NCBI GenBank assembly: GCA_035996815.1
Contig: DASYJF010000040.1
Span: forward strand, 41,792-105,791
Source of the DNA: Thermoanaerobaculia bacterium
Lineage (GTDB): Bacteria > Acidobacteriota > Thermoanaerobaculia > Gp7-AA8
DNA length: 64,000 nt
Direction: 5' to 3'
Position numbers and translations under genes: made by a program. The first letter of the stretch is position 1. Every line of letters begins with the position of its first letter. Of this stretch, positions 1,047-55,003 are shown piece by piece. Below the pieces are notes generated by a model that was not told the origin of the DNA, did no database searches, and was given only the letters and a program-made list of their open reading frames with translations.

Positions 1047-3058
1047 ATACGATCAGCACACTACTCGGATCAGCGATAGGTCAGGCCATCGGTTGGGCAC
1101 TCCTGCATCTCCTTTGGCAGGGCGTGCTCGTCGCCGCGATCCTCGCCGCGACGCTGGCGCTCCTTTCGAAACAAAGCGCGAACGCGCGCTACCTCGCCTC
1201 CTGCGGCGCGCTCGCGCTGCTGGTGGTCCTCGGCGCGGCGACTGCGTATCGGTCGTACGAAGGGAGTGGGGAGTTGGGTGTGGGGAGTGGGAGCGAAGCA
1301 AGTGACATCGCTTCGCTCACTGCCGCCTTTCAGAACACACCCGAAACTCTGGTCTCCTACACCCCACTCCCCACACCCTACCCCCTCATTAACTACACCA
1401 AATCCCATCTTCCGCAAATCGTCCTGGTCTGGCTGACCGGCGTTCTGCTGCTGTCCGTCCGTCTTCTCTTCGGATGGCTGCGCGCGCATTCGATCGCCAG
1501 GAAAAATGCGACCGAGGCTGCGCCGGAATGGCAGCGCAGCGCGCGGCGTCTCGCGGACGCGCTCAAACTCCGCCGCGCCGTGCAGCTTCTCGAGTCGGCG
1601 GCGGTCGAAGTGCCGACGGTTATCGGCTGGCTGCGGCCGGTCGTCCTCTTGCCCGCCACATCGCTTACCGGACTCTCCACCGAACAGATGGAGATGATCC
1701 TCGCGCACGAGCTGGCCCATATCCGCCGCAACGACTTCTTCGTCAACCTGATGCAGGCCGTGGTCGAGACGTTGCTTTTCTACCATCCGGCCGTGTGGTG
1801 GATTTCGAACCGCATCCGCGTCGAGCGGGAGCACTGCTGCGATGACGTCGCGGTTTCCGTCTCCGGCAAGCCGCTCGTCTACGCCCGCGCCCTGACCCGT
1901 CTCGAAGAACTGCGTGTCGAAGATGCGCAGGCGTTCATCGCCGCGAACGGCGGCTCGCTCATCGGCCGCATCCGCCGCCTGGCGGGCGCGCGCGCCGAAT
2001 CGCCGAATGCGCCGTCGCGCTTCGTCGCCGGAGCAGCGCTGCTCACCGTGCTGCTCGCGCTGATCATCGCCCCGTCGCTGCCGATCCGCGGACAGCAGCA
2101 GAAAGCCGACACACCGGCTCCGAAGCCGCAGGCATCGCAGACGACGGTCGAAGTCAAAGCCGGCGACGCCACGGATGACGAAGACTCCAACGATGCCGAA
2201 GCACCGGAAGCGGACGACACGGACGACAACGTGGCTCCTGCCATCGCGCCGCGCCCCGTCATTGCCGGAGTTCCGGGCGGAATTGCTGGTGGAATCGAAG
2301 GCGGCATTGCCGGCGGAATCGCTGACGGAATCTCGGAAGGCATCAGTGGAAACACTCCGATGATCGCCCCGATGGCATTCGCGCCCGCCGCTCGCGCGAT
2401 CGCGCAGGTCGCCCCGCGCATCGCGATGCGCGCGCTGGAAAGCATCAATCTCGACGACATCAACATCGACGCGCCTGAGTCACCGACCCCGCGTCCGGAT
2501 CGTCATCGCCGTCATCACATCGGCGAAGGCGGCAAACTCACCATCGACGACCTGATCGAGCTGCGCGCCTCCGGAGTCACGCCCGCGTACATCGACACGA
2601 TGCGTAGTGCCGGCATCGGCGAGTTGTCGCTCGATGAGATCGCCGAGATGCGCGCCATGGGCGTCACGCCGGAGTACATCAAGTCGCTTCGCGACGCGGG
2701 CATCAAGTTCGACAATGCTCGCAGCATCACCGAGCTGCGCGCGCTCGGCGTCACCGGCGAGTACCTCTCGCAGATGCGCGCCGCGGGCTACGCCAACCTC
2801 ACCACGAAGCAGCTCAGCGAAATGCGTGCGATGGGCGTTACGCCGTCGTACATAAAGCAGATGTCGGACGCCGGTTACCGCAACCTGACGCCGAGAGAAT
2901 TGGTCGAGCTGAAGGCGCAGGGCATCCGCCCCGAATTCATCAAATCGCTCAACGACGCCGGCTACACGAACCTCTCCATCAAAGACCTCGTGCGCATGGC
3001 CGCGATGGGCGTGAACGCCGATTTCATTCGCGACCTGGCGAAGTACAAAGTGAAGTAG
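1043..3058 (+). CDS. BlaR1-like M56 membrane metalloprotease/signal transducer with a non-canonical C-terminal repeat sensor domain
   Basis: N-terminal TM helices, HELAHIRRND zinc motif, position directly after the BlaI-like gene with a 4-nt overlap. The C-terminus has six ~30-aa repeats (LRAxGVTPEYIKxLRDAGY). Confidence 0.85.
   Translation: MNTISTLLGSAIGQAIGWALLHLLWQGVLVAAILAATLALLSKQSANARYLASCGALALLVVLGAATAYRSYEGSGELGVGSGSEASDIASLTAAFQNTPETLVSYTPLPTPYPLINYTKSHLPQIVLVWLTGVLLLSVRLLFGWLRAHSIARKNATEAAPEWQRSARRLADALKLRRAVQLLESAAVEVPTVIGWLRPVVLLPATSLTGLSTEQMEMILAHELAHIRRNDFFVNLMQAVVETLLFYHPAVWWISNRIRVEREHCCDDVAVSVSGKPLVYARALTRLEELRVEDAQAFIAANGGSLIGRIRRLAGARAESPNAPSRFVAGAALLTVLLALIIAPSLPIRGQQQKADTPAPKPQASQTTVEVKAGDATDDEDSNDAEAPEADDTDDNVAPAIAPRPVIAGVPGGIAGGIEGGIAGGIADGISEGISGNTPMIAPMAFAPAARAIAQVAPRIAMRALESINLDDINIDAPESPTPRPDRHRRHHIGEGGKLTIDDLIELRASGVTPAYIDTMRSAGIGELSLDEIAEMRAMGVTPEYIKSLRDAGIKFDNARSITELRALGVTGEYLSQMRAAGYANLTTKQLSEMRAMGVTPSYIKQMSDAGYRNLTPRELVELKAQGIRPEFIKSLNDAGYTNLSIKDLVRMAAMGVNADFIRDLAKYKVK
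1262..1385. repeat. G-family heptamer palindrome (GGGGAGT arm / ACTCCCC arm) lying in frame inside the BlaR1-like CDS
   Basis: G arm 1262-1292, inner 7-bp hairpin gcgaagc/gcttcgc 1293-1316, C arm 1358-1385. Translated as GSGELGVGSGS...YTPLPTPYP. Confidence 0.8.
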
Positions 3059-3061
3059 AAG

Positions 3062-3335
3062 CAGTGGTCAGTGGCTAGTGGTCAGTGGTCAGAATGCGCT
3101 GATCACTGACCTCCCGGCCACACCACCCACTGATCCTGATACTGACCACTGACCTCTGATCACTCTGACCACTGACCACTGGCCACTGATCACTAACCAC
3201 TGACCACTGGCCACTGATCACTAACCACTAACCACTGGCCACTGATCACTAACCACTGGCCACTAACCACTAACCACTGGCCACTGGCCACTGACCACTG
3301 ACCACTGACCACTGGCCACTGACCACTGACCACTA
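3062..3335. repeat. T-family element: short CAGTGGT arm, then a 24-unit in-register heptamer array CT(G/A)(G/A)(C/T)CA
   Basis: Left arm 3062-3092 (4.5 units). Degenerate units 3099-3164. 24 uninterrupted heptamers at 3165-3332 in four variants: CTGACCA, CTGGCCA, CTGATCA, CTAACCA. Confidence 0.9.
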
Positions 3336-8500: not shown

Positions 8501-10498
8501 GATTTCAGCGACGCGCAGACGATCCAGATCACCAGCCAGGTAGCCGGAGCCACCACGCGAACCTTCTCGCATACGGTGACCACCGATACGCGCTATTACT
8601 ACCGCGTTCACGCCGCGCCGGCGTGCGGCGGCAACTACGGAGCGTTCTCACTGGTCGCGAGCGTCCTGGTGACCGCGCCACAATCGTCGCGGCAGCCGAA
8701 TTTCAACTTTGCGCAGCTCCCCTGCCCGCCATCGCCCTGCACCATCACGCAGCAGATCTTCATCCCCGGCATCCCCACGAGCGGCAAGACGGCGCTCGCC
8801 ACGGGCGACACGTTCAGCGTCTCCTCGGACGAACCATTCATCACGATTTCGCCCTCCAGCGGATCGCTTCCAGCCGAAGGCGCCACCGTCACGGCGACGA
8901 TCGATCTCTCGCAGCTCGACGTCGGCTCGACGCAGGCCAGCCTCACGATCAACCGCGCGCAGGCTGCCGGCAAAATCGGCGCGCTTGGCGACCAGCCGCC
9001 AACCAACGTACCGGTATCGATCAGCGTCGTCGCGCCTGTCACGCCGACGCCGAAGGACCCGAACTCCGGATTCAACGCGCTGCTCATCCCGGCAATCGCG
9101 CACGCGGACGGCATCGGCTCGCGCTTCGTCAGCGACGTCCGCGTGACCAACACCGCCACGCAGTCGATCGACTACCAGCTCACCTACACGCCGAACGGCG
9201 CCGACGGCACCGTCACCGGTAAGCAGGTCACGCTCACCGTCAAGGCGGGCGAGACGAAGGCGCTCAACGACATCGTCAAAGACTGGTACGGCTCGGGCGT
9301 CCTCGGCGAAGCGCCGCAAGGCTCGCTCGAAATTCGTCCGCTCAACTTCGCGGGCAAGGACACCCCCAGCATCAGCCTGGCTACGGTCGCCGCCAGCCGC
9401 ACGTACAGCGTCGCGGCGACGGGCACCTTCGGGCAGTACATCCCCGCGCTGGCGTTGGTGAACTTCCTCTCGAAGGCGAGCGCGTCGAAGATTTCGCTAC
9501 AGCAGGTTTCGCAGAGCAGCGCCACGGGCGGCTTCCGCACGAACCTCGGCTTCATCGAAGGCTCCGGCCAGCCGGTCGATTTCGTGGCCACCCTGCTCGA
9601 TGACGCCGGCCACACGGTCGCCGAACGGGCCTATTCGTTAAAACCGTACGAATCGCAGCAGCAGCGGCTCGATCAGTTCTTCAGCGTCTCATCGATCACC
9701 GATGGGCGCGTGGAAGTGCGCGTGACCAGCGATACGGGCCACGTCAGTTCGTACGCCTCGGTCCTCGACAACACCACCACCGATCCGCTGCTGGTCTTCC
9801 CCGCCGATCCGGCCAAGATTTCCGCGAAGCGCTTCGTGGTGCCGGGCGTGGCGGAGTTCGACAATTCGTTCTCGAATTTCCACACCGACATGCGCATCTA
9901 CAATGGCGGAACGTCGCCCGTCGACGTGACGCTGGCCTTCACCGGCGCCAGCGTACCGAACAAAGTGAAGACGATCGGCGCGGGCGAAACGCTGGCGGTC
10001 GACAACGTCCTGCCGACGCTCTGGAACACCACCGGCGGCGGCTCAGTCGTGGCGACAACGGCGAATGAGTCGCAGCTCGTCGTCACCGCACGTACCTTCA
10101 GCCGTGACAAAACGAACGGTGGAACGTTCGGTCAGTTCATCCCCGGCGTTACCGCCGCGGAGGCAGTCGGCAACGGCGAGCGCGCGCTGCAGATCGTGCA
10201 GCTCGAGGAATCGCCCGCCTTCCGCACGAACCTCGGCCTCGTGGAAGTAACCGGCAGCCCCATCACCGTGGAGTTGCTCGCCTACACGCCCGACTCGAAA
10301 GTGGCCGCGCGCACGGTCGTGCCCCTCGGCGCAGGCGAGTACCTGCAGAAAGGCGGCATCTTCAAATCGCTCGGATTCAACAACGTCTACAACGGCCGCA
10401 TCACCGCCCGCGTCATCAGCGGCACCGGCCGCGTAGCCGCCTACGGCTCCGTCATCGACAACAGAACGACGGATCCGACGTACGTGCCGTCGCAGTAG
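5549..10498 (+). CDS. Giant secreted multidomain metzincin-type zinc protease (1649 aa) with Ig-like, DUF4214-like and Fn3-like modules and a duplicated C-terminal domain
   Basis: GTG start after AGAGAGG. Signal peptide. HELGHAIGFRH = HExxHxxGxxH (about 6521-6553). Repeated ..YQWY..TNxCG Ig-like modules. WINQLY/WINRVY..LGR repeats. Confidence 0.85.
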   Translation: MKHIRLIAIICLLASAASATVFQPLTDRQLVDRSDSVVIATVRDAASRVRTDGYVVTDYRFDVEQTLKGAAAGTITVSEIGGVSGSRFTFISDSASYTPGERVMVFLKKRGDGTYFTTSMAMGKFSFTRTARGESVVTRDVSELRGDPARLADGFAQFVKSGSRDTYQATLTPIASALHPIALTAPSAYCLRTSSGPGGFPVRWENGDTGRTVPVLTNSSMPYSTTSAIAAGAAAWTNDPGANITLTPSGTTTASSADGSNSIYIYLSTTQANPPGICDGSQACTLGYGSTFHTFAGEQFVGIVGADIFVQPTVPAAAFDALITHELGHAIGFRHANDGNSPSSSTALMSSPVNQALGSSLQSWDVEAVETVYGTGPVCQPPTSVSISGGGTYPSGQTATLTATVIGGNGTFTFAWFEGNLNDTSTPVGTNSNTFTTPPITSSKNYWVRVMNGCGTVTATTSVNLQPVGPGCTQVSIAVQPTASQPVSSGGSVTLTVTAGGTPPFTYQWYQATSTLDTSHPVGSNSPSFTTPALTQPTSYWVKVTNDCGVVNSNIAAITITGQCIPPSFSIQPASATIVAGSQTYLIAFASGATSYQWYRGNAGDTSTPVAGVGPSNDRWINQLYIDLLGRPADAAALSTLNALLAGGATRNSVALVVLTSAEYRQRLLTDFYSTFLHRPISAAEVGFWMPAFASGMTDEQIESQILASPEYFALGGSSNSSWINRVYNEVLGRSPSSAETSANLTLLGSNSRLSIALSILNSLEAASHRVQLGFPRFLHRSPTGSETSAFVAQLQGGVTDEQFLAQLLASDEYFNFGTILFTGPISATTRYWVRATNGNCAGDSSVATLTVPQCTLPVIVTQPSNVTLTAGETFSVAVIATGATSYQWFRASSGDPSNPVSGATGPVLTSTINNVGPTEFWVRITNECGSTNSNTVTVTTQCGTRVPAISGPPIAPSATSYPITWNGSSLRDASYELQEATKSDFSDAQTIQITSQVAGATTRTFSHTVTTDTRYYYRVHAAPACGGNYGAFSLVASVLVTAPQSSRQPNFNFAQLPCPPSPCTITQQIFIPGIPTSGKTALATGDTFSVSSDEPFITISPSSGSLPAEGATVTATIDLSQLDVGSTQASLTINRAQAAGKIGALGDQPPTNVPVSISVVAPVTPTPKDPNSGFNALLIPAIAHADGIGSRFVSDVRVTNTATQSIDYQLTYTPNGADGTVTGKQVTLTVKAGETKALNDIVKDWYGSGVLGEAPQGSLEIRPLNFAGKDTPSISLATVAASRTYSVAATGTFGQYIPALALVNFLSKASASKISLQQVSQSSATGGFRTNLGFIEGSGQPVDFVATLLDDAGHTVAERAYSLKPYESQQQRLDQFFSVSSITDGRVEVRVTSDTGHVSSYASVLDNTTTDPLLVFPADPAKISAKRFVVPGVAEFDNSFSNFHTDMRIYNGGTSPVDVTLAFTGASVPNKVKTIGAGETLAVDNVLPTLWNTTGGGSVVATTANESQLVVTARTFSRDKTNGGTFGQFIPGVTAAEAVGNGERALQIVQLEESPAFRTNLGLVEVTGSPITVELLAYTPDSKVAARTVVPLGAGEYLQKGGIFKSLGFNNVYNGRITARVISGTGRVAAYGSVIDNRTTDPTYVPSQ

Positions 10499-17472: not shown

Positions 17473-19497
<2,025 letters not shown>

Positions 19498-19504
19498 ACC
19501 CCGG

Positions 19505-19700
19505 ATTTGTCACTTCAGGAGGACAAACACTCCATCGAAAATGGAACCAAGACGGAGGTCGTCTGTCTTCAAGACGGAGGTCGTCCGTCTCAAGACCGAG
19601 GTCGTCTGTCTTCAAGACGGAGATCGTCTGTCTTCAAGACGGAAGTCGTCTGTCTTCAAGACGGAGGTCGTCTGTCTTCAAGACGGAGCTCGGCTATCTT
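19505..19700 (+). repeat. Leader hairpin plus 7 tandem 22-nt units CAAGACGGAGGTCGTCTGTCTT (candidate multi-hairpin RNA)
   Basis: Units at 19548, 19570, 19591, 19613, 19635, 19657, 19679. Each contains AGACG-GAGGT-CGTCT (5-bp stem, 5-nt loop). Upstream hairpin TTTGTC-ACTTCAGGAG-GACAAA at 19506-19527. Confidence 0.85.
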
Positions 19701-19736
19701 CAACGCGGATCTGACCGCACCAAAGACGGGAAGATC

Positions 19737-23948: not shown

Positions 23949-24036
23949 GGGGGGTGGGGAGTAGGGGGTGGGGAGTGGGAGATGGAACCCGCGCTTCCCA
24001 CAGCGGGCCGTTCTCCTACACCCCACTCCCCACCCC

Positions 24037-24042
<6 letters not shown>
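23949..24042. repeat. G-family heptamer palindrome filling the gap between convergent stops
   Basis: G arm 23949-23981 (GGGGGGTGGGGAGTAGGGGGTGGGGAGTGGGAG). C arm 24015-24042. The TAG of the S9 peptidase (24037-24039) lies inside the C arm. Confidence 0.85.
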
Positions 24043-26151
<2,109 letters not shown>

Positions 26152-29454: not shown

Positions 29455-29580
29455 TTAGTGGTCAGTGGTCAGTGGTCAGTCGTGAGGCGCAGTGGTTAGT
29501 GTGACCATCGTTAGTGAGGGACTGGCCATGACGACCGAGGTCGGCTTCTCCAAACCACTGACCACCAGCCACTGACCACC
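29455..29580. repeat. T-family heptamer palindrome (GTGGTCA / TGACCAC) upstream of the ZIP-YfhO-like operon
   Basis: Left arm 29455-29506 (TTAGTGGTCAGTGGTCAGTGGTCAG...). Right arm 29554-29580 (AACCACTGACCACCAGCCACTGACCACC). Confidence 0.8.
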
Positions 29581-31477: not shown

Positions 31478-31617
31478 GCTGGCGTCTCGCCGGCTGGCCC
31501 GGCTGCGTCCTCGCTGCCGAATGGGAGGCTTGCACGGGTGTCTCGTTACCAGCGAAATTCGAGGGGTTGGTCAGGTCGGCAGCGAGACGCAGCCGGGCCA
31601 GCCGGCGAGACGCCAGC
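31478..31617. repeat. P-family long palindrome (about 42-bp GC-rich arms, 55-nt conserved centre), copy 1
   Basis: Left arm 31478-31520 is the reverse complement of 31576-31617 with one indel. Homologous to 63901-64000. Confidence 0.85.
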
Positions 31618-32182: not shown

Positions 32183-32275
32183 GTGGACTGGAAGTGGATT
32201 AGTAGATTAGTAGATTCGGACGCGTGCTTTCGGTCCTGCTCCGAATCTACTCATCGACTAATCCACTAATCTACT
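32183..32275. repeat. A-family octamer palindrome (AGTRGATT / AATCYACT), copy 1
   Basis: Left arm 32183-32220, loop containing GGACGCGTG, right arm 32240-32275. The TAG of the upstream gene (32271-32273) is inside the arm. Confidence 0.85.
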
Positions 32276-33036: not shown

Positions 33037-33115
33037 GGGTGTGGGGGGTTGGGGGTGGGGAGTGGTTAGTGGAAATCGCGACTCAGCGACTGCCACTCCC
33101 CACTCCCGACTCCCC
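33037..33115. repeat. G-family heptamer palindrome between ybgF and the TPR/cNMP gene
   Basis: G arm 33037-33072 (ends GGGGAGTGGTTAGTGG, a hybrid with the T-family unit). C arm 33093-33115 (CCACTCCCCACTCCCGACTCCCC). Confidence 0.8.
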
Positions 33116-34689: not shown

Positions 34690-34821
34690 CAGTGGACTAG
34701 TAGGTTAGTGGATTTAGTGGATTAGGACGCGTGGTGTCCACTCATCTACTGATCGCAACCCGCTGATCTGCCTCATCCACTGATCTACTAATCCACTCAT
34801 CTACTAGTCGACTAATCCACT
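34690..34821. repeat. A-family octamer palindrome, copy 2 (right arm expanded to about 10 units)
   Basis: Left arm 34690-34727 (AGTGGACTAGTAGGTTAGTGGATTTAGTGGATT), loop GGACGCGTGGTGTCC, right arm 34737-34821. The rpe TAG (34820-34822) is at the arm end. Confidence 0.85.
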
Positions 34822-35488
34822 ACGTTTTCATCACAACGCTACTTCGGATCGCTTCCATTGCCGCTTTGCGGTCGGGCTGTCCGAAGACGGCCGATCCGGC
34901 CACGAGGATGCGCGCGCCGGCCGCAACTACCAGCGGCGCCGTGGCCGCGTCGATGCCGCCGTCGACTTCGATGTCGACCGCGCCCCCCCCCTCTCTGATC
35001 ATCTGCGCTATATGACGGATCTTGCCCACAACAGGTTCGATGAACTTCTGTCCGCCGAAGCCGGGGTTGACCGTCATCACCAGCACAAAGTCGCAGAACT
35101 CGATGGCCGTGGTCAGCGATTCCGCCGGCGTGGCGGGGTTGATGGCGATGCCCGCCTTCGCGCCGCCGTGGCGGATCATCTGCAACGCGCGCTGCAGATG
35201 TGGCTCGGCTTCCTGATGGATCGAGATCATGTCCGCGCCGGCTTCGATGAACGCGTCGATGTATCGCTGCGGCTCGGAAATCATCAGGTGACAGTCGAAC
35301 GTCAGCTTCGTCTGCGCACGGCACGACTTCACGATGGCAGGACCGATGGTCAGGTTCGGAACGAAATGCCCGTCCATGACGTCGAGATGGACGAGGTCCG
35401 CGCCGCCGGCTTCGATGTCGCGTAGTTCGTCGCCGAGCCGCGAGAAATCAGCCGAGAGGAGCGACGGCGCGATCTGAACTTTCGTCAT
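34820..35488 (-). CDS. rpe: Ribulose-phosphate 3-epimerase
   Basis: Typical rpe sequence (PSLLSADF, HLDVMDGHFVPN, MTVNPGFGGQKF). Confidence 0.92.
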   Translation of the reverse strand: MTKVQIAPSLLSADFSRLGDELRDIEAGGADLVHLDVMDGHFVPNLTIGPAIVKSCRAQTKLTFDCHLMISEPQRYIDAFIEAGADMISIHQEAEPHLQRALQMIRHGGAKAGIAINPATPAESLTTAIEFCDFVLVMTVNPGFGGQKFIEPVVGKIRHIAQMIREGGGAVDIEVDGGIDAATAPLVVAAGARILVAGSAVFGQPDRKAAMEAIRSSVVMKT

Positions 35489-41441: not shown

Positions 41442-43259
41442 TTAGAAGTTGACGGCCAACCCGCCGATGTACCGGCGCGTGCTGCCGTCGGCGTCGAGGG
41501 CATCCAAGAGGATGCGCGAGTTCTCGGAGCGGGCCAGCTCGATGCCGAGGAGGACTTTGAGATCAAGCGGGAGATGAAGCGACTGCGCGAGACGGACGTC
41601 GACGCGATGCGTGCGATATGCGTCGCCACCGTTCGGCTGCGGCTGTTGAATCTGGCGGTAGGAGACGGCCACCGTGGTGCGCGTCGGCGAGAAGGTCGAT
41701 TCGACGTCGCCCGCAACGTACAGTTTGTCGGTGCCGTGCGCGTTGACCGATGTGTGGCCCGGCGTGGCCGTGCCGGCCATCGAGGAAACGTCGAGCAGGA
41801 ATCGGCTGCCGAGCTCTTTGCGGAAGGCGACACGAACATCGCGGCGAATGTCGCCCGCGTCGATGTAGAGGCCGTCCCAGAAATGTTCGAGCCCGTCGGT
41901 GAAGACGATGCGCAGAGGCGTGTCGGCGGCGCTGACGCTGCCGACGACGCTGAAATGCTCGCGGGCCGTGTCGCCCGAGACGATGCCCGCCGAGTACGAG
42001 TAATGCGGCAGAAGGCGCGAGTCATCACTCCAGACGATCACGCTCGGCAGCGTGTTCTGGTGCATCGCATCGACGACTTTGTACATCCCGGAGACGACGA
42101 GCGCCGTGTCTTTGCCGATCTTGATTTCCGCACCGGTGCGCGGCGCCCACTCGGTGCCGTAGAGGCCAACGCGGCTGGACATCCCGTAATCGATGGTGAA
42201 GGCGGGGACGATTTCGAACTTCGCGTTCGCGGTGAGATCCGCGGTTCGAAGCGTCGGTCCGGTCGTGATGCCGGGCGTGCTGCGCAGGCTTTCCTGCGTC
42301 ACGCGCAACGACACGCCGACTTCGTTGCGGCGCGTCTGAATCACGTTCGTGTCGCCGGCGACCTCGATGAGGTCCGAGCCGGGTGTCGCGGCAAAGAGGT
42401 TTTGCTGCGCGAGGTAACGAACCTGCACGCGCGAGCCGCCGTGCTCCCATTCGAAGTTGTGCGAACGGATATCGGCCTGATGTGAATCGTCAGGAACGTC
42501 ATCGCGATAGCGCCACCAGGAACGGGTCGAGGCGAGCTTGTACGAATCGGTCGGCGAAGAGCGCAACTCGATCTGCGCCGCACTCGCTTGTGCAACAGGA
42601 GCTCCGAACGAGTAACTGTCCGTCTGGTCCTCGACCCGATGCAGGTTGCCGCGGAAGCCCAGCTGCCAGTTGTCGCCGATGCGGCTTTGCAGTCCAAGAG
42701 CGGTCTGCGCGAAGGCGGGACCGGAGGCGGAGGTCGGCCCGGACGACATTCCGGTCATCGACATCATGTCGCCGCGGAAGCGTGGCGTTGCGTACGCTTC
42801 GGTGGCCACCGGACCGATCGGATCGGGCGGCGGCGTCATGACCATGTCGATCTCGCGCAGGATGTCGGGCGGAAGCGAGCCGCGGATTTCCCACATCTGC
42901 TGATTGGTGCCGCGCGCCTGTTTCTCGGCCTCCATCCTCAGCTTGAGACGATGATCTTTCTTCGTCGGGACGATCGTCTCGATGGCCGGCGCGAAGCCGT
43001 ACTTCATCGCCACGATCTTGTAGACGCCGGCGGGCAGCTGCGGCAGCGAAAACGATCCGTCGCTGGCGCTGAAGGTCTGGATCGCGTCAAGACTGTTCAG
43101 ATTGAGCGCGATGACGAGCGCGTTGCCGACAGGACGCGTGGAGCTGGTGACGTTGCCAAGGACTTGCAGAAACGCGGGAAGCGGAACCTCGGAATGCGCA
43201 GGGACAGCGAGGATGACGATGGCGGTAGTCGCAATCGCAATCGCACGCAGTCGGCGCAT
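41442..43259 (-). CDS. Outer-membrane beta-barrel-like protein with an N-terminal carboxypeptidase-regulatory-like domain
   Basis: The ATG at 43259 is preceded by AAGGAGGG. Signal peptide. SDGSFSLPQLPAGVYKIV motif. The C-terminus ends ...GGLAVNF (aromatic terminal residue). Confidence 0.7.
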   Translation of the reverse strand: MRRLRAIAIATTAIVILAVPAHSEVPLPAFLQVLGNVTSSTRPVGNALVIALNLNSLDAIQTFSASDGSFSLPQLPAGVYKIVAMKYGFAPAIETIVPTKKDHRLKLRMEAEKQARGTNQQMWEIRGSLPPDILREIDMVMTPPPDPIGPVATEAYATPRFRGDMMSMTGMSSGPTSASGPAFAQTALGLQSRIGDNWQLGFRGNLHRVEDQTDSYSFGAPVAQASAAQIELRSSPTDSYKLASTRSWWRYRDDVPDDSHQADIRSHNFEWEHGGSRVQVRYLAQQNLFAATPGSDLIEVAGDTNVIQTRRNEVGVSLRVTQESLRSTPGITTGPTLRTADLTANAKFEIVPAFTIDYGMSSRVGLYGTEWAPRTGAEIKIGKDTALVVSGMYKVVDAMHQNTLPSVIVWSDDSRLLPHYSYSAGIVSGDTAREHFSVVGSVSAADTPLRIVFTDGLEHFWDGLYIDAGDIRRDVRVAFRKELGSRFLLDVSSMAGTATPGHTSVNAHGTDKLYVAGDVESTFSPTRTTVAVSYRQIQQPQPNGGDAYRTHRVDVRLAQSLHLPLDLKVLLGIELARSENSRILLDALDADGSTRRYIGGLAVNF

Positions 43260-43354
43260 AGGCTTCCCTCCTTCGTTACCCGGCAAGCGAGTCTAAGGAG
43301 TCGTTTGCCGCGAGTCAAATGGGGGAACGTGAGGTTTCGGTGAGGAAGTTCCTT

Positions 43355-43914
43355 GGGTGGGGAGTCGGGGGTCGGGAGTCGGGGGTCGGAGGTCGGAGGT
43401 CGGGTGCCGGATACTGTTACTGATTTGTCGCCCGAGGTACACTGACGCCCCCACACAGCGCTGCTGCGCTCGCATCTTCTCTCTGCCGTCAACGCCACAC
43501 GACCGCGATGAGCGAAAGTATCTACGAACGATTGGACGCTTGGAAAAAAGCTATGCGCCTTGCTACCGCCACCTATGCAGCAATGCAATCATTTCCACGT
43601 CATGAGCTGTATGGGCTTACCGCGCAAATGCGCCGTGCCGCGATATCGGTACCGTCCAACATCGCCGAAGGCCGAGGGCGCGACACAAAGCGGGACTTTC
43701 GACAATTCGTCATTCGAGCACGCGCATCCGCGTTCGAGTTGCGGACTCAGATCACGATAGCGGAATCGCTGAACTACTTTTCTAGAGAAGAGGCGAAGCA
43801 CCTGATCGAGCAATCCGACGACGTTCTTCTGGTGATCAACGGCCTGATTCGCCACCTCACGAGGAGCGTCACTGGGTTCCGGGGGCCTTTTCGACTCCCG
43901 ACCCCCGACTCCCG
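43355..43914 (+). mobile_element. G-family palindrome carrying a four-helix-bundle gene as cargo (cassette 1)
   Basis: G arm 43355-43410 (GGGGAGTCGGGGGTCGGGAGTCGGGGGTCGGAGGTCGGAGGTCGGG). Conserved box CCGAGGTACACT 43432-43443. The cargo ORF. C arm 43892-43914 (CGACTCCCGACCCCCGACTCCCG). Confidence 0.6.
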
Positions 43915-43927
43915 TTCTACCCTTTGA
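43508..43927 (+). CDS. Four-helix-bundle protein (23S rRNA intervening-sequence protein / Avd-like family)
   Basis: Hallmark LYGLTAQMRRAAISVPSNIAEGRGR...F..A..S..EL.TQ sequence. Visibly lower GC than its neighbours. The 3' end reads through the C arm and overlaps the pyk 3' end by 11 nt. Confidence 0.8.
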   Translation: MSESIYERLDAWKKAMRLATATYAAMQSFPRHELYGLTAQMRRAAISVPSNIAEGRGRDTKRDFRQFVIRARASAFELRTQITIAESLNYFSREEAKHLIEQSDDVLLVINGLIRHLTRSVTGFRGPFRLPTPDSRSTL

Positions 43928-45347
43928 CGCGATGCACGCGCAGCAGATTTGTTTTCGCGCGCTGATAGATCGGCGATCCCATCAGTATGACCAGGCGATC
44001 CCCCGGAACGACGATGTCGCGGCTGAGCAGGAACTCGTCGACGCGATCGACGATCTGCTCGTGATATTCGCCGACGTCGCGGAGGACGAACGGCTGCACG
44101 CCCCAGAGAATGTTCATCCGCCGCGCGACCCAGGTCGAAGGCGTCAGCGCGATGATCGGCTGCTTCGGACGGAACTTCGACATCAGCCGCGCCGCGAATC
44201 CGGTCTGCGTGAAAACGATGATGAACTTCGCATCCATCTGCTGCGCGGCGTAGTTTGCGGCACCGGCCAGCGCGTCGGTGAACTCGTCGATCTCCGAGGA
44301 AACGCGGTACGGTTCGCGGCTGCCGGCGACCTGAAACTCGCGGTTCTGTTCGGCGGCCATGATGATGCGGGCCATCATCTGCACCGCTTCGACGGGATAC
44401 ATGCCGGACGCGGTTTCCGCCGACAGCATCACCGCATCGGAGCCGTCGAAGATCGCGTTAGCCACATCCGAGGCTTCGGCGCGCGTTGGGCGCGAATTCG
44501 TCGTCATCGACTCCAGCATCTGTGTCGCCGTAATCGCGAAGCGGCCCCAAATCGCGGCCCTGTGCAGAACCTGCTTTTGCACGATCGGCACGGCCTCGGG
44601 CGGAAGTTCGACGCCGAGGTCGCCGCGGGCGACCATCACGCCGTCGCTGACGTCGAGGATGTCTTCGAGCGCGTCGATGGCCTGCGATTTTTCGAGCTTG
44701 GCGACAACATTGATCTCATCTCCGCCGAGGCCGTGAAGAAGAGAGCGCAGCTCGACGATGTCGCCGCGGCGGCGGATAAAGGACGCGGCGATGTAGTCGA
44801 GGCCATTCGCGACGGCGAAAGCAACATCCTCGCGATCCTTCTCCGTGATGGCCGGAATCGTCAGTTCCGTATCGGGGAAGTTCATCCCCTTCTTCGACGA
44901 GATCGGCCCGCCGTGAATGACGCGCGTCAGGACTTTCGCGCCATCGACCGCGGCAACGACGAGCTCGACCAGCCCATCATTAATGAGGATGCGTTGCCCG
45001 AGTTGCACTTCCCGAGGCAGCGGCGTGAAGGGCGTAGAGACGATCGACGCGTTGCCCATCAACGCCTCGGTCGTGATCGTCAGCATCTGTCCCGTCTTCA
45101 GGTGAATGACGCCATCGACCTCACCGATGCGCAGCTTCGGCCCCTGGATGTCGGCGAGGATCGGGATGTACTTCCCGTTATCCATCGAAACACGCCGGAT
45201 GATCTCGATGAGCCGTACGCGATCGGACGGCGTTCCGTGCGAGAAGTTCATCCGAAACACATCGACGCCCGTGGTCCGCAGGCGAAGGATGAGATCTGCG
45301 GACGCGCACGCGGGGCCGTGCGTTGCGATGATTTTGGTTCGGCGCAT
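43917..45347 (-). CDS. pyk: Pyruvate kinase
   Basis: MRRTKIIATHGPA, full-length 476 aa with typical PK motifs (MVARGDLGVE). Confidence 0.95.
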   Translation of the reverse strand: MRRTKIIATHGPACASADLILRLRTTGVDVFRMNFSHGTPSDRVRLIEIIRRVSMDNGKYIPILADIQGPKLRIGEVDGVIHLKTGQMLTITTEALMGNASIVSTPFTPLPREVQLGQRILINDGLVELVVAAVDGAKVLTRVIHGGPISSKKGMNFPDTELTIPAITEKDREDVAFAVANGLDYIAASFIRRRGDIVELRSLLHGLGGDEINVVAKLEKSQAIDALEDILDVSDGVMVARGDLGVELPPEAVPIVQKQVLHRAAIWGRFAITATQMLESMTTNSRPTRAEASDVANAIFDGSDAVMLSAETASGMYPVEAVQMMARIIMAAEQNREFQVAGSREPYRVSSEIDEFTDALAGAANYAAQQMDAKFIIVFTQTGFAARLMSKFRPKQPIIALTPSTWVARRMNILWGVQPFVLRDVGEYHEQIVDRVDEFLLSRDIVVPGDRLVILMGSPIYQRAKTNLLRVHRVKG

Positions 45348-45778
45348 CAGCGTTTTCGATATATCACGGGGATTTGGGGGGGGGGGGTGGGGGGTGGGGT
45401 GTGGGGAGGTGAATCAACAGCTTCCGTGAGATGCCGAATGAGACCATTCAAGAGGCGAACGACCGCTTCGGAGTGTTTCGTCAGCCGAACGAGATCATCG
45501 CTCGTCGCGTAGTGCAGAGCATCCGCAATGCTGATTTGAGTTTGTAACTCGTACAACGATCCGCGCGCTTGGACTGCGAATCGGCAAAAGTCGCGCTTCG
45601 AAGCGCGGCCTCGTCCCTCGGCAATGTTGCTCGGCACTGACACTGCCGCTCGTCGGAGTTGCGAGGTAAGTCCGTAAAGCTCGTGTTTTGGAAATGTCTG
45701 CGTGACTTTATAGGTGTCGATCGCTAGCTGCATAGATTCTTTCCACACCTCAAGCCGTCGATAGATGCTGTCGGTCAT
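45347..45778 (-). CDS. Four-helix-bundle protein (second, diverged copy), stop/start coupled to pyk
   Basis: MTDSIYRRLEVWKESMQLAIDTY...LYGLTSQLRRAAVSVPSNIAEGRGR, roughly 55-60% identical by eye to the 43508 product. Its TGA overlaps the pyk ATG (TGATG). Confidence 0.8.
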   Translation of the reverse strand: MTDSIYRRLEVWKESMQLAIDTYKVTQTFPKHELYGLTSQLRRAAVSVPSNIAEGRGRASKRDFCRFAVQARGSLYELQTQISIADALHYATSDDLVRLTKHSEAVVRLLNGLIRHLTEAVDSPPHTPPPTPPPQIPVIYRKR

Positions 45779-45890
45779 ACTTTGGCTGGCGCGCGGAGAG
45801 CCGACGCAGAGGTGGGAGACGGTTAGTGTACCTCGGCCGCGGCTTCGCCGCAGCTGAGCTCCCACACCCCACCCCCAACTCCCCACCCCC
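45368..45890 (-). mobile_element. G-family palindrome carrying a four-helix-bundle gene as cargo (cassette 2, inverted relative to cassette 1)
   Basis: On the minus strand: G arm = 45890-45861, box CCGAGGTACACT = 45836-45825, cargo ORF, C arm = 45409-45368 including a C12 run (45376-45387). Confidence 0.6.
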
Positions 45891-46927
45891 TAAACGCTCG
45901 CAGTCAGCGCGGGTTGCAATGACCGGCCCACTACGCGCGCGATCGCATCGCACTCGCGGACGATCTGGGCGAAGGCTTCCGGCAGGATGGCTTGCGGACC
46001 GTCGGAGAGCGCTTCCTCCGGCTTGTGATGGACTTCGATCAGTACGCCGTCGGCGCCAGCCGCAATCGAGGCGCGCGACATCGGTGCGACTTTGTTGCGC
46101 TTGCCGGTGCCGTGACTCGGATCGACGAGGACCGGCAGATGGCTGATGCGCTTGATGGCCGGGATGATGGAGAGGTCGAGGGTGTTTCGCGTGTGGTCGG
46201 CAAACGTCCGCACACCGCGCTCGCACAGGATCACGTTGTAGTTGCCCTCGGCCATGATGTATTCGGCCGACAGCAAAAGCTCTTCGAGAGTGGCCGACAT
46301 CCCGCGCTTCAGCAGTACCGGTTTCCGCGCGCGGCCGGCCATCTTCAGCAGCGAGAAGTTCTGCATGTTCCGCGCACCGATCTGGATGCAGTCGGCGTAT
46401 TTGTCGACCAATAGCAGCGCCTCGTTGTCGATCGCCTCGGTGACGATGGGGAGATCGAACTCTTCCCGGACGCGCGCCAGAATTTCGAGTCCTTCCTCGC
46501 CGAGTCCCTGAAACGAGTACGGCGACGTGCGCGGCTTGTACGCGCCGCCGCGGAAGAGCTGCCCGCCGGCGTTCTTGATGCCCTCAGCAATTGCGCGGGC
46601 CTGATCGAGCGACTCGACCGCGCACGGACCACCGACGACGATGATTCCGTTGCCGCCGACGTCCACGCCACCAACATTGATGATGCTGTCATCCGGACGC
46701 GCTTCGCGGCTGACCAGCTTGTACGCGTGCGAGACACGAATGACTTCTTTGACGCCCGGATAGTTCTCGAGAACCTCGGGATCGGCTTTCCCCGGCTTGC
46801 CGGTGATTCCGATGGCAGTGCGGTTCGCGCCTGGGATGGCGTGAGCCTTGAGGCCCATGCGCTCAATGTGGCGGACGACGGCTTCGATTTGATCGGGCCG
46901 TGCACCGGCCTCCATGACGACGAGCAT
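45890..46927 (-). CDS. aroF: 3-deoxy-7-phosphoheptulonate (DAHP) synthase, type I-beta with an N-terminal ferredoxin-like regulatory domain
   Basis: GPCAVES, KPRTSPYSFQGLG, CERG, DPSH motifs. ~75-aa N-terminal extension. Confidence 0.88.
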   Translation of the reverse strand: MLVVMEAGARPDQIEAVVRHIERMGLKAHAIPGANRTAIGITGKPGKADPEVLENYPGVKEVIRVSHAYKLVSREARPDDSIINVGGVDVGGNGIIVVGGPCAVESLDQARAIAEGIKNAGGQLFRGGAYKPRTSPYSFQGLGEEGLEILARVREEFDLPIVTEAIDNEALLLVDKYADCIQIGARNMQNFSLLKMAGRARKPVLLKRGMSATLEELLLSAEYIMAEGNYNVILCERGVRTFADHTRNTLDLSIIPAIKRISHLPVLVDPSHGTGKRNKVAPMSRASIAAGADGVLIEVHHKPEEALSDGPQAILPEAFAQIVRECDAIARVVGRSLQPALTASV

Positions 46928-49020: not shown

Positions 49021-49098
49021 GGGCGTGGGGAGTAGGGAGTGGGGAGTGGAAGATAAGGCGCTTTTTGCCACTCCCCACTCCCCACTCCCCACTCCCCC
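49021..49098. repeat. G-family heptamer palindrome occupying the divergent intergenic region upstream of kdsB
   Basis: G arm 49021-49050, 17-nt A/T-rich spacer, C arm 49069-49098 (CACTCCCCACTCCCCACTCCCCACTCCCCC). Confidence 0.85.
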
Positions 49099-53206: not shown

Positions 53207-55003
53207 ATGTCGAAGATTCAGCGCATCGTCTCGATCGTCATCGCGCTCTACCTTCTGCTCGTTCTCATCGACCGATTCGTTCTCGTCGAGCTGCTCGTCA
53301 CGCGCGTCGGCCTGTCGGTTCTGCTGGCGCTGTTTGAAGCGTTCGCGATCTTCGGCGCCGGCTTCGCGGTGCGGGCTGCGATCGCGCGGGATTGGAGCAC
53401 TGTTGATGCCGATCTTCCGCGCGACTTTCTCCTCGGCTATCCCATCTTCGGCGCGCTCTGTTTTCTCGCCGGCACGCTGAACATCTCCGCGTGGTCGATG
53501 GGCATGCTCCTGGTTGTGTTTGGCGTCGGCGGAATTTACGTTTTCGTGCGGCGAATCGAATCGCGTCCGCCCGAGATGCCCACGATCGGTGAGCCGCTCG
53601 TGCTCATCGCGCTCGCGATCGTTTTCATTTGCGCGCTGATCGCCGCGCAAGCGCCGCCGTCGTCGCTCGACGAGCTCGCCTATCACCTGGCCGTTCCGTG
53701 GACGTGGGTAAAGGAACATCGCGCCATCGAGCTGCCGCTGATTTCGCATTCGTACTTTCCGCTCGGAATCGAATCGGCCGATCTTCCACTGCTGACGATC
53801 CTCGGCCAACTTGCCGGCGGCATCGCATCACACTTCCTTCATCTCGGCGCGGCACTCGCCGCGACGGCGATGCTCTTCCGCCTTTCGCGCGGCAACGCGC
53901 TCGCACTCGCCGCGATCGTGACCACTCCCGCGCTCGCGCTCATCGCGGGCTGGTCGCTGGTCGACTGGCCGTTGATCGGCATCTGCGCGATCCTCGTTCT
54001 TGCGCTCGATGATGACGACGTGGCGAGGATCTCGATGGCGATCGCCGCAGGCTTGCTGACGAAGTACACGTTTATTGCGTTCGCGGTTTTGGGGTGTGGG
54101 GTGTGGGGTGTGGGGCGTGGGAAAAGCACGTCGTCGACCCCAGACTCTCACTCCCCACTTCCCACTCCCCACTCCCTCCTTATCGGCATCGCCATCGGCT
54201 CCATCTTCTTCATCCGCAATCTAATCCTTACCGCGAATCCGATCGCGCCATTTTTCTCTTCCGCGGCACCACATGTGGCGGCATATCGCGCACCGTTCCT
54301 TTCCGACTACGTCTTCGACGGACACTTCCTCGACGAAAGCCTCGGCGCATCGCTCATCGCCGCCTGCACGCTCTCGGCCGGCATGCTTCCGTGGATTTTG
54401 ATCGGTGCCGCGGTGCTTCTGTTCCTGCTCGCGCCGTCGTCGCGGATCCTTCTGCCGTTTCTCGCCATTCCTGCCGCGCGATCACACAGGCCGGGGCGAC
54501 TCATGCGACTCGTCCTGGTCCTATCGATCGTCGTACAGCTTTTTCTGATCGGCTACTTCGTCGATCGCGGCGCCGGGTTCTCGTTGCTCTCGGCTGCGGC
54601 CTCGGACGCCGAATTCCTGACGAAGCAGCGCTCCTCCTTCAAGACGGTGCAGTCGATCGATGCACTTCTTCCCGCCGATGCGCGCGCGCTCGTCATCGGC
54701 CTCAACGAAACGTTCTGGTTCGCGCGGCGCGTGCGCGGCGGCGGCAACTTCGACGGACCGCGCGTCTCGCGTTACCTTGAGATGTCGACACCCGAGGCGT
54801 TGTACGCGCGGCTGAAGAACGACGGCATCACGCATGTCGCGGTTGTCGCGCCCGCGGCAGCCGCCACCACCGTCGCGCAGAAACTGGCAGAGCGTGAGAC
54901 CGCGCTCTCCCCTGTCGCGCAGCGTATGCTTGCCCAAACTCTCGACCGCTACGCTTCGAACGTCGCTCCCGGCGCGGGCGCAACGGTCTTCACACTCAGA
55001 TAG
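53207..55003 (+). CDS. Polytopic membrane protein, GT-C-like glycosyltransferase (tentative)
   Basis: More than 10 TM helices. SLDELAYH first-loop acidic motif. C-terminal soluble domain. Follows kdsA by 9 nt. Confidence 0.6.
   Translation: MSKIQRIVSIVIALYLLLVLIDRFVLVELLVTRVGLSVLLALFEAFAIFGAGFAVRAAIARDWSTVDADLPRDFLLGYPIFGALCFLAGTLNISAWSMGMLLVVFGVGGIYVFVRRIESRPPEMPTIGEPLVLIALAIVFICALIAAQAPPSSLDELAYHLAVPWTWVKEHRAIELPLISHSYFPLGIESADLPLLTILGQLAGGIASHFLHLGAALAATAMLFRLSRGNALALAAIVTTPALALIAGWSLVDWPLIGICAILVLALDDDDVARISMAIAAGLLTKYTFIAFAVLGCGVWGVGRGKSTSSTPDSHSPLPTPHSLLIGIAIGSIFFIRNLILTANPIAPFFSSAAPHVAAYRAPFLSDYVFDGHFLDESLGASLIAACTLSAGMLPWILIGAAVLLFLLAPSSRILLPFLAIPAARSHRPGRLMRLVLVLSIVVQLFLIGYFVDRGAGFSLLSAAASDAEFLTKQRSSFKTVQSIDALLPADARALVIGLNETFWFARRVRGGGNFDGPRVSRYLEMSTPEALYARLKNDGITHVAVVAPAAAATTVAQKLAERETALSPVAQRMLAQTLDRYASNVAPGAGATVFTLR
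54090..54177. repeat. G-family heptamer palindrome in frame inside the GT-C-like membrane protein CDS
   Basis: G arm 54090-54122 (TGGGGTGTGGGGTGTGGGGTGTGGGGCGTGGGA). C arm 54148-54177. Translated as LGCGVWGVGRGKSTSSTPDSHSPLPTPHS. Confidence 0.8.

Follow-up and report, generated by a model that had tools for sequence, protein, structure and literature searches.

Four-helix-bundle genes between inverted heptamer arms in the spacers around a pyruvate kinase gene: a local instance of a broad, apparently undescribed arrangement

What is a small gene within a palindrome of tandem repeats doing between the housekeeping genes of an operon? The question is raised by a Thermoanaerobaculia bacterium (Acidobacteriota) in which the pyruvate kinase gene pyk is bracketed by two four-helix-bundle (4HB) genes, each enclosed by inverted arrays of short tandem repeats. 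The window in which this locus was analysed is a stretch of 64,000 nucleotides (contig DASYJF010000040.1 of assembly GCA_035996815.1, positions 41,792 to 105,791 of the forward strand); positions below are those of the window, or of the named comparison locus (L and a number). Each 4HB gene with its two arms and the short box in its leader is here called a cassette. The parts of the two cassettes and their host genes are as follows.

41442-43286, - strand: cpd, gene of a CarboxypepD_reg protein, neighbour of cassette 1
43355..43411, + strand: cassette 1, 5' arm, about seven tandem heptamers GGGAGTC/GGGGGTC/GGAGGTC (Tandem Repeats Finder: period 7, 7.1 copies)
43432..43443, + strand: cassette 1, box CCGAGGTACACT, 64 nt before the ATG
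43508..43927, + strand: cassette 1, 4HB gene, 139 aa, core at 43508-43864
43892..43914, + strand: cassette 1, 3' arm (CGACTCC/CGACCCC), ending 2 nt from the pyk stop codon
43917..45347, - strand: pyk, pyruvate kinase (PF00224 + PF02887), host gene flanked by both cassettes
45347..45778, - strand: cassette 2, 4HB gene, 143 aa, its stop overlapping the pyk ATG (TGATG)
45369..45411, - strand: cassette 2, 3' arm, C-rich on the coding strand, within the tail of the reading frame
45825..45836, - strand: cassette 2, box CCGAGGTACACT, 46 nt before the ATG
45856..45893, - strand: cassette 2, 5' arm, G-rich on the coding strand, beginning at the aroF stop codon
45890..46927, - strand: aroF-type 3-deoxy-D-arabino-heptulosonate 7-phosphate synthase (PF00793 + PF18152), host gene upstream of cassette 2

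An earlier note on this stretch had described one architecture for both cassettes (arm, box, ATG, a core ending in NGLIRHLT and a complementary arm through which the open reading frame (ORF) reads on), had placed cassette 2 between the aroF stop and the pyk start and cassette 1 against the pyk stop on the opposite strand, and had found the cargo lower in GC than its surroundings; this description is borne out in every detail checked. The arms of cassette 1 (43360-43381 and 43892-43913) are 100% complementary over 22 nt, and the 3' arm of cassette 2 is 88% complementary to 45861-45893 over 33 nt. The 5' arm of cassette 2 is in contact with the aroF stop codon at 45890-45892, and the ORF tail of cassette 1 overlaps the pyk stop in antisense. 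Both 4HB cores end in NGLIRHLT, and in both ORFs the 3' arm is translated, giving the tails PPHTPPPTPPP... and FRLPTPDSRSTL. Exactly two copies of the box CCGAGGTACACT exist in the window, where 0.14 would be expected by chance. The GC content of the 4HB cores is 54.6%, compared with 62-64% in the neighbouring genes, and their codon usage and composition are foreign to those neighbours, with a GC at third codon positions of 60-61% against 80-81% (in round figures 60% against 80%). The arms consist of tandem G-rich heptamers with at least four G runs, the repeat pattern required of a G-quadruplex, as do those of six gene-free stems described below. When the two cassettes were folded, as the note had proposed, the arms paired with one another in the predicted minimum-energy and centroid RNA structures of both (z -2.9 and -5.7). 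Since the outer 5' arms of the two cassettes (43355-43387 and 45856-45888) are also 82% complementary to each other over 33 nt, and the two boxes are mutually complementary, the 2.5-kb block as a whole forms a single large, imperfect palindrome with pyk in the middle. The cassettes are flanked by aroF, pyk and the CarboxypepD_reg gene and not by helix 25 or 45 of 23S rRNA, and an Rfam search of 42800-46400 (E <= 1) returned a chance miRNA match only and no rRNA. A promoter and terminator scan found no sigma-70 match at the box, nothing at the arms and no T-tract terminators; the box may still have a promoter role.

The arrangement recurs far beyond the window. Loci for comparison were fetched by protein patterns only, so that retrieval was blind to arms. 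Among 80 loci from named Acidobacteriota, 79 of which were scored (score of at least 15), inverted arms flank the 4HB gene in 76/79 compared with 4/543 shifted control positions, nearly all with a period of 7; the note's suggestion that PF05635-type genes of relatives be examined for such arms is thereby answered in the affirmative. A metagenome set of 80 loci, ranging from 42 to 82% identity and from AT-rich to GC-rich, yielded 56 testable genes, 34 of which have arms (ungapped inverted-repeat score of at least 14), as against 5 of 220 shifted controls (p = 3e-19). In the reverse direction, 1.15 Mb were searched for inverted arms of tandem repeats of any kind at a spacing of 200-2500 nt, which gave 67 pairs. 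As many as 56 of these overlap 4HB cassettes already identified, and two more (in L127 and L097) enclose a PF05635 gene, the one at L127 4837-5196 being a divergent gene overlooked by BLAST (PF05635 E 7e-17); the remaining nine are mostly arms of two neighbouring free hairpins. Arm length is 28-36 nt with a median of 32 nt, about four to five units, and the units vary by lineage: GTCGTTG is the commonest in Terriglobales, and others are GGCTTCC, GGTCTTA, GTTTCAA, AGGCACAA, AGCGGAGTT and GGGGAGT. Instances from cultured, named organisms of further genera are these.

Calothrix: cassette with units GGGTGTA
Nostoc edaphicum: units GGGGAGT, between the two ribonucleotide reductase genes
Nostoc punctiforme: units CAGGAGT
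Stanieria: units GGCAGAA
Gemmatirosa: units GGGCAGGA
Picosynechococcus PCC 7003 (L088 1465-1894): between cmr2 and cmr3 of a CRISPR-cas operon
Pseudanabaena galeata (L173 976-1657): 4HB gene between cas6 and cas4, a more complex case

Heptamers of the short tandemly repeated repetitive (STRR) type have been known from heterocystous cyanobacteria since about 1990. The comparisons indicate that the armed cassette is a general property of the TIGR02436 gene family, in several phyla and in nearly all sampled members. A literature search, with subscription journals outside its coverage, met with fragments only and with no description of a general association of gene and arms or of cassettes borne on mRNA, in agreement with the earlier note, whose author knew of none inside mRNA operons. 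The regularity is broad and apparently undescribed, and the window is a local instance of it.

Gene and arms are also bound to each other in their divergence. Protein identity and the distance between repeat units are strongly and negatively correlated (Spearman -0.51; Mantel 0/500), and two cassettes on one contig (L114 and L154), only 51% identical in protein and different in unit, each have relatives of 80-84% elsewhere that bear their own unit. Judged from sequence comparison, the repeat unit co-diverges with the protein lineage and not with the host genome, and lineages coexist in one genome. With regard to their neighbours, 39 of 61 cassettes are co-directional with both and 6 antisense to both, and the 5' arm starts at a median of 9 nt after the upstream ORF; being mostly co-directional and tightly packed, the cassettes would normally form part of operon transcripts. 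The 5' arm contains more G than C in 112/129 cassettes, a polarity that does not depend on the strand from which it is read. The idea that every 5' arm is purine-rich was rejected, the arms of Terriglobales being GTCGTTG, as was a Shine-Dalgarno sequence within the 5' arm as the cause of the polarity, since only 52/137 arms have one. Between arm and ATG, the box CCGAGGTACACT is invariant in 8/8 cassettes of the Thermoanaerobaculia type, both paralogues included. Terriglobales cassettes have conserved boxes of their own in its place: in one group (L107, L108, L109, L132, L153, L154, L160 and L167) a CRP/FNR-like palindrome, TGTGA-N6-TCACA, some 60-90 nt before the ATG, and in others CGTCACATACA. 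These boxes may be lineage-specific promoter or operator boxes.

Close relatives of the aroF-pyk locus, in which the earlier note had suggested a search for empty sites, provide these at the site of cassette 1. Homologue names agree with a place of the organism in the Thermoanaerobaculia, and an exact-sequence look-up of the window's pyk met with no record. L001, L003, L004, L006 and L008 all preserve the order aroF-cassette 2-pyk, and with it the two arms, the box and the overlap of stop and ATG. Cassette 1 is shared by the window and L002 and missing from L003, L004 and L006, in which 8-21 nt and no hairpin separate the pyk stop from a common AACTTC(C)TCACCGAAACC; L008 also appears to be without it, judged by a pyk-cpd gap of only about 80 nt and not by inspected sequence. 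As an empty site without hairpin stands against a full cassette, gene and arms are present or absent as one indel unit among these relatives. The single filled/empty comparison shows a possible 3-nt duplication of AAC, no transposase being present. By similarity, cassette 1 groups with L091 and L092 (CGGGGGT units), its closest relatives at 78-82%, and cassette 2 with L001 and L008 (GGGGTGT units). A recombinant origin of the L091/L092 cassette was considered and rejected, as it is cassette-1-like over its whole length.

In some relatives pyk itself is turned round. It is inverted with respect to cpd in L009 (2581-6355), L091 (5947-10249) and L092 (4296-8114), and in L009 with respect to aroF too. 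The order in L009 is cpd(-), cassette-2-type(+), pyk(+), an armed stem and aroF(-), and that in L091 and L092 cpd(-), cassette-1-type(+), pyk(+), these two contigs ending before any aroF. The inversions would fit recombination between the inverted arms around pyk, and misassembly of metagenome-assembled genomes (MAGs) at repeats could also produce them. The armed stem of L009 (4862-5475) has CGGGGGT-type arms that enclose about 500 nt of tandem repeats of about 59 nt (GGTAGTGGTTTTGACTCGTGAAATCATGCTATGGACACTTTC...) and no 4HB gene.

The assignment of the cargo to the PF05635 type of four-helix bundle, made in the earlier note without database searches, is confirmed by profile scores far over the cut-offs: for cassettes 1 and 2, respectively, PF05635 gives E 1.7e-34 and 2.6e-37 (118.7 and 127.7 bits, cut-off 33.8) and TIGR02436 gives 114 and 125 bits (cut-off 24). 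The AlphaFold2 model of the cassette 2 protein (mean confidence, pLDDT, 89) comprises four helices and, in the part that the 3' arm encodes, a tail of low confidence. In Foldseek comparisons its best structural likeness is to XCC0516 of Xanthomonas (2GSC; template-modelling score, TM, 0.92; 49% identity) and BT_0352 of Bacteroides (2RLD; TM 0.89), followed by Avd of a diversity-generating retroelement (DGR; 4DWL, TM 0.83) and a DGR ribonucleoprotein (8UB7, TM 0.84). The entries 2GSC, 2RLD and 4DWL each contain five chains (A-E), and XCC0516 has been reported as a homopentameric ring (PMC4990558). Cassette 1 has a weak match to bAvd (PF22296) and reaches 22.3 bits with the Avd equivalog profile NF033474 (cut-off 80), with which cassette 2 has no match. 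The profile search found in the 4HB proteins no family but PF05635 above such weak matches, with no tyrosine transposase of the HUH (histidine-hydrophobic-histidine) class, and no reverse transcriptase among the adjacent genes; PADLOC gave no defence-system match, and no relatives of the family were found in 2.9 million viral contigs (IMG/VR) or 50,697 phage records (INPHARED). The ratio of nonsynonymous to synonymous substitution (dN/dS) between the window and its relatives is 0.04-0.17, which indicates that the 4HB protein is under purifying selection and hence functional, despite its fast divergence: between the window and L003, identity is 75% for the 4HB protein, 95% for pyk and 99.7% for aroF, and the two window-type paralogues share 57%. 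For one and the same set of genome pairs (window with L003, L006 and L008), the synonymous divergence of the 4HB gene is about double the value for the neighbouring pyk (dS 0.95-1.4 against 0.48-0.64), for which weak codon constraint or exchange with paralogues could account.

The earlier note had also reported that the stem exists free of cargo at six other sites of the window, and six such G-rich heptamer stems are indeed found (1262/1356, 18119/18168, 23949/24022, 33037/33093, 49021/49068 and 54090/54149), beside five further cargo-free stems with other units (AGTGGTC, AGTGGATT). Of the six G-rich stems, that at 18119 has units of the cassette 1 type and the other five have units of the cassette 2 type, and every one of the window's 13 palindromes, with or without cargo, has the G-rich arm first. 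The cargo-free palindromes, to which no strand is assigned, include the following.

1262..1386: GGGAGTG type, 71-nt loop
3062..3334: AGTGGTC units, 3' side expanded to about 27 units ACTGACC
18119..18200: CGGGGGT, cassette-1-type units, 21-nt loop, 93% complementary
23949..24053: GGGGAGT type
29457..29579: AGTGGTC type
32193..32275: octamers AGTAGATT
33037..33115: GGGGGTG type
34691..34822: octamers AGTGGATT
49021..49097: GGGAGTG type, 18-nt loop, 93% complementary
54090..54176: TGGGGTG type

In the second of these, about 27 copies of ACTGACC at 3141-3334 face only about four units in the 5' side (3062-3092), and the space between two ORFs of the + strand (ends 3058 and 3337) is occupied exactly by the array. 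Two other repeats of the window have a different build: seven tandem copies of a partly palindromic 22-nt unit, CAAGACGGAGGTCGTCTGTCTT, at 19548-19703, unrelated to the heptamer stems, and a perfect 32-nt inverted repeat, GCTGGCGTCTCGCCGGCTGGCCCGGCTGCGTC, at 31478-31509 and 31586-31617, with a 76-nt loop and no tandem units.

What, then, is a cassette? We consider it rather probable that each is an element of the intervening sequence (IVS) type, consisting of an S23p/TIGR02436 gene, a leader box and two inverted arrays of about four to five heptamers, lodged in the aroF-pyk-cpd spacers. Such an element would have entered the operon spacers by insertion, and we infer both its mobility and a role for its protein. 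In read-through operon RNA, pairing of the arms would yield a stem of about 30 bp by which the cassette is closed off. The ORF-bearing IVS in 23S rRNA of Coxiella and Leptospira suggest by analogy that host RNase III could cut this stem. Cutting would separate the cassette RNA from the flanking messages, whereby residence in rRNA or in operons would become tolerable. The downstream host gene may in turn be tied to the cassette, as pyk starts on the cassette stop and, in Xanthomonas, accC at the end of the 3' arm. The cargo-free palindromes would be arms without a gene, having either derived from cassettes or arisen by the process that made these.

The link to 23S rRNA intervening sequences had been drawn in the earlier note and holds through the shared PF05635 family. 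In Coxiella the IVS is 428 nt long, sits in helix 45 of 23S rRNA, combines an S23p ORF with a terminal stem of 28 bp, which is a substrate of RNase III in vitro, and even carries tandem GACAGAT heptamers before the S23p ATG, in copy numbers that vary by strain (PMC4990558). Like the ORF-bearing rRNA IVS of Leptospira and Coxiella, which have long been suspected of being selfish or mobile, the cassettes have a PF05635 ORF within complementary termini that would form a long stem (about 28 bp in Coxiella; arms of 22-33 nt in the window), and with the Coxiella IVS they share tandem heptamers just upstream of the ATG and a place inside a host transcript. They differ in lying in mRNA operon spacers (aroF-pyk; accB-accC) instead of helix 45, in having both arms made wholly of tandem units, in the many cargo-free copies dispersed in the genome, and in an ORF that appears to be maintained by purifying selection where that of Coxiella is reported to be decaying.

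Several observations weigh against an inserted IVS-type element. No transposase, integrase or clear target-site duplication was found at the cassettes; of what marks a terminal-inverted-repeat transposon or a miniature inverted-repeat transposable element, inverted ends are seen, and beside them only the possible AAC duplication. Excision by RNase III, demonstrated for Coxiella only in vitro, is extended to mRNA-borne cassettes by analogy. Their behaviour as one indel unit could be due to hairpin-mediated deletion instead of insertion, and cassettes may be lost by slippage across the hairpin. In L101, whose pyk is 75% identical, a cassette with GGGTAGC arms and the box variant CCGAGGTACGAT occupies the cassette 1 site in the same orientation, so that cassette 1 may be old and have been lost in some relatives. 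The loops of free hairpins, compared with cassette interiors by blastn-short, gave chance-level matches only and no cassette remnant. Mismatches within the arms of both locus sets are symmetric (164 G.T + T.G against 191 A.C + C.A), and a wobble test for selection on the sense RNA found no G.U excess. Selection on an RNA stem alone should favour G.U over A.C, and that this is not seen points to copying or recognition of DNA; the arms are better explained as sequences that are renewed, or recognised, in DNA, and the RNA stem would follow from this unavoidably. The comparison sequences, finally, are mostly MAGs or metagenome contigs, in which repeats can be misassembled.

These mismatches would fit a second explanation, which overlaps with the IVS-type reading and does not exclude it, and which we regard as possible though clearly less probable. 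Here protein and repeat would be partners, in the manner of repetitive extragenic palindromic (REP) sequences and REP-associated tyrosine transposases (RAYTs): a pentameric ring would bind about four to five units of its own type, in DNA or RNA, and maintain, spread or use the palindromes, of which the arms of the gene itself would be the adjacent copies. Symmetric mismatches are what recognition of a double-stranded or strand-independent motif would leave; the unit co-varies with the protein lineage, co-resident cassettes included; arms of 28-36 nt, about four to five units, match the five chains of 2GSC, 2RLD and Avd; and the G-rich arm comes first in every palindrome of the window, in line with the excess of G over C in most 5' arms. 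The likeness to REP sequences, REP doublets (REPINs) and RAYTs (PMC3116915) lies in a gene flanked by an inverted short repeat that is also dispersed without the gene in intergenic spacers. Unlike RAYTs, which are single-copy HUH (IS200/IS605-like) tyrosine transposases, the cassettes encode a non-enzymatic-looking four-helix bundle that has the fold of neither a nuclease nor a recombinase, a genome has several copies and lineages, and the arms are tandem arrays in place of single REP hairpins.

Xanthomonas also speaks for such a partnership. The genome of X. campestris contains 186 GGGAATC arrays, 70 of them in inverted pairs with the plus-strand array first; these are found at distances of 3-16 nt behind the upstream gene, for example in the gltBD, groESL and atp operons (Rehm et al. 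2015, PMC4692102). Array #15, located 6 nt after accB and overlapping the annotated start of XCC0516, was listed only beside a 'conserved' gene, and no connection between repeat and XCC0516 was drawn (PMC4692102). In X. campestris and X. sacchari we find the order aroQ-accB-[(GGGAATC)4-4HB-C-rich arm]-accC (L175 2423-2873; L177 2483-2933): the accB-accC operon is interrupted by an XCC0516 orthologue that has GGGAATC-type arms on both sides. By manual comparison the arms are complementary at 26/30 positions, and the 3' arm ends at the accC ATG, with no Shine-Dalgarno sequence visible. As in the Xanthomonas GGGAATC and Nostoc GGGGA(C/T)T repeats (PMC4692102), the arms in the window are tandem heptamers, there typically four units, placed just after the ends of housekeeping genes, and the 70 inverted pairs with the G-rich array first have the polarity and placement of the window's cargo-free stems. 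The published view differs in treating the repeats as G-quadruplex-forming simple repeats with no mobile-element association, whereas most cassette arms elsewhere cannot form a quadruplex.

In its widest form the partnership would make S23p/TIGR02436 proteins the dedicated partners of tandem-repeat palindromes (STRR, GGGAATC and the stems of the window), with a ring that reads about four to five cognate units; the cassette would be the autonomous element and the gene-free hairpin the non-autonomous one, and ORF-bearing and ORF-less rRNA IVS would be the same pair. We put this forward tentatively. That free hairpins share polarity and unit types with the cassette arms bears on the idea of such a pair, which the earlier note had raised; in a direct comparison of free-hairpin with cassette units, shuffled units matched equally well and only polarity differed (1.26 against 1.97). 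Binding of the repeat by the protein has to be assumed in either form, co-variation of unit and protein is also to be expected from simple linkage, and a mixed metagenome sample has cassettes and very few free hairpins nearby.

The distribution of free hairpins matters also for the other possibility offered in the earlier note, that the gene homes into hairpin loops, taken here as those of hairpins already present in the host, by which the arms would be older than the cargo. Such hairpins are plentiful in the lineage of the window (about 1.6-2 free tandem-repeat hairpins per 10 kb in the window itself, and 0.39 per 10 kb in Acidobacteriota flanks), the CGGGGGT-armed stem of L009 holds a different cargo, and in L101 a cargo-free (GTGCTGA)n/(CTCAGGA)n hairpin (9843-9954) fills the aroF-pyk spacer, exactly the place of cassette 2 in the window. 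The units of this hairpin, however, differ from those of cassette 2, and its loop has only the 9-mer TCTCCGCGC in common with the cassette 2 leader, which is at chance level (E about 1). The empty cassette 1 site is without a hairpin, the arm unit follows the protein lineage across genomes, and metagenome cassettes are armed where free hairpins are almost absent nearby (5 in 260 kb of mixed metagenome flanks, 3 of them in close relatives of the window). Homing into loops is thus disfavoured, and we think it improbable.

Far less credible again is that the arms are ordinary host RNA elements, such as terminators, mRNA stabilisers or G-quadruplex regulators, beside a small gene by coincidence. 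G-rich heptamer arrays do form G-quadruplexes in vitro and lie near gene ends in Xanthomonas and Nostoc (PMC4692102), and the arms in the window have the G runs for it. Yet a canonical quadruplex is possible in only 13/137 cassette 5' arms, for which reason it was rejected as a general property, T-tract terminators are absent, the predicted folds pair the arms across the gene and not locally, and coincidence would have to reproduce arms at 76/79 loci against 4/543 controls. The least believable reading of all is that the 4HB genes encode Avd, the accessory protein of a diversity-generating retroelement. They have the homologous fold and, in cassette 1, the weak PF22296 and NF033474 matches in common with Avd, which works with structured nucleic acid and has five chains in its solved structures, but score far under the Avd equivalog cut-off (22 bits against 80), stand next to aroF, pyk and the CarboxypepD_reg gene with no adjacent reverse transcriptase or template/variable repeats, and belong to a family not met in the phage and viral collections.

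For the family, an IVS-type element in operon spacers, whether or not its protein also partners the repeat, has several consequences. Thousands of 'four helix bundle protein' genes of unknown function gain a common context, that of a gene within inverted arrays of its own 7-9-nt repeat. Three literatures are joined, those on rRNA intervening sequences, on the G-rich heptamers of Xanthomonas and Nostoc and on cyanobacterial STRR. XCC0516, with a crystal structure, both arms and 186 arrays of the GGGAATC unit in the genome, offers a tractable model. Zhang et al. reported 18 genes of this kind within cas operons and interpreted them as cas-associated (PMC3936711); these 23S_rRNA_IVP genes, and with them those found here between cmr2 and cmr3 or between cas6 and cas4, look like guests of operon spacers and not like components of Cas systems, and on that reading guilt-by-association calls need review. 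For the host, cassettes split essential operons and place inverted repeats around its genes, and they break assemblies.

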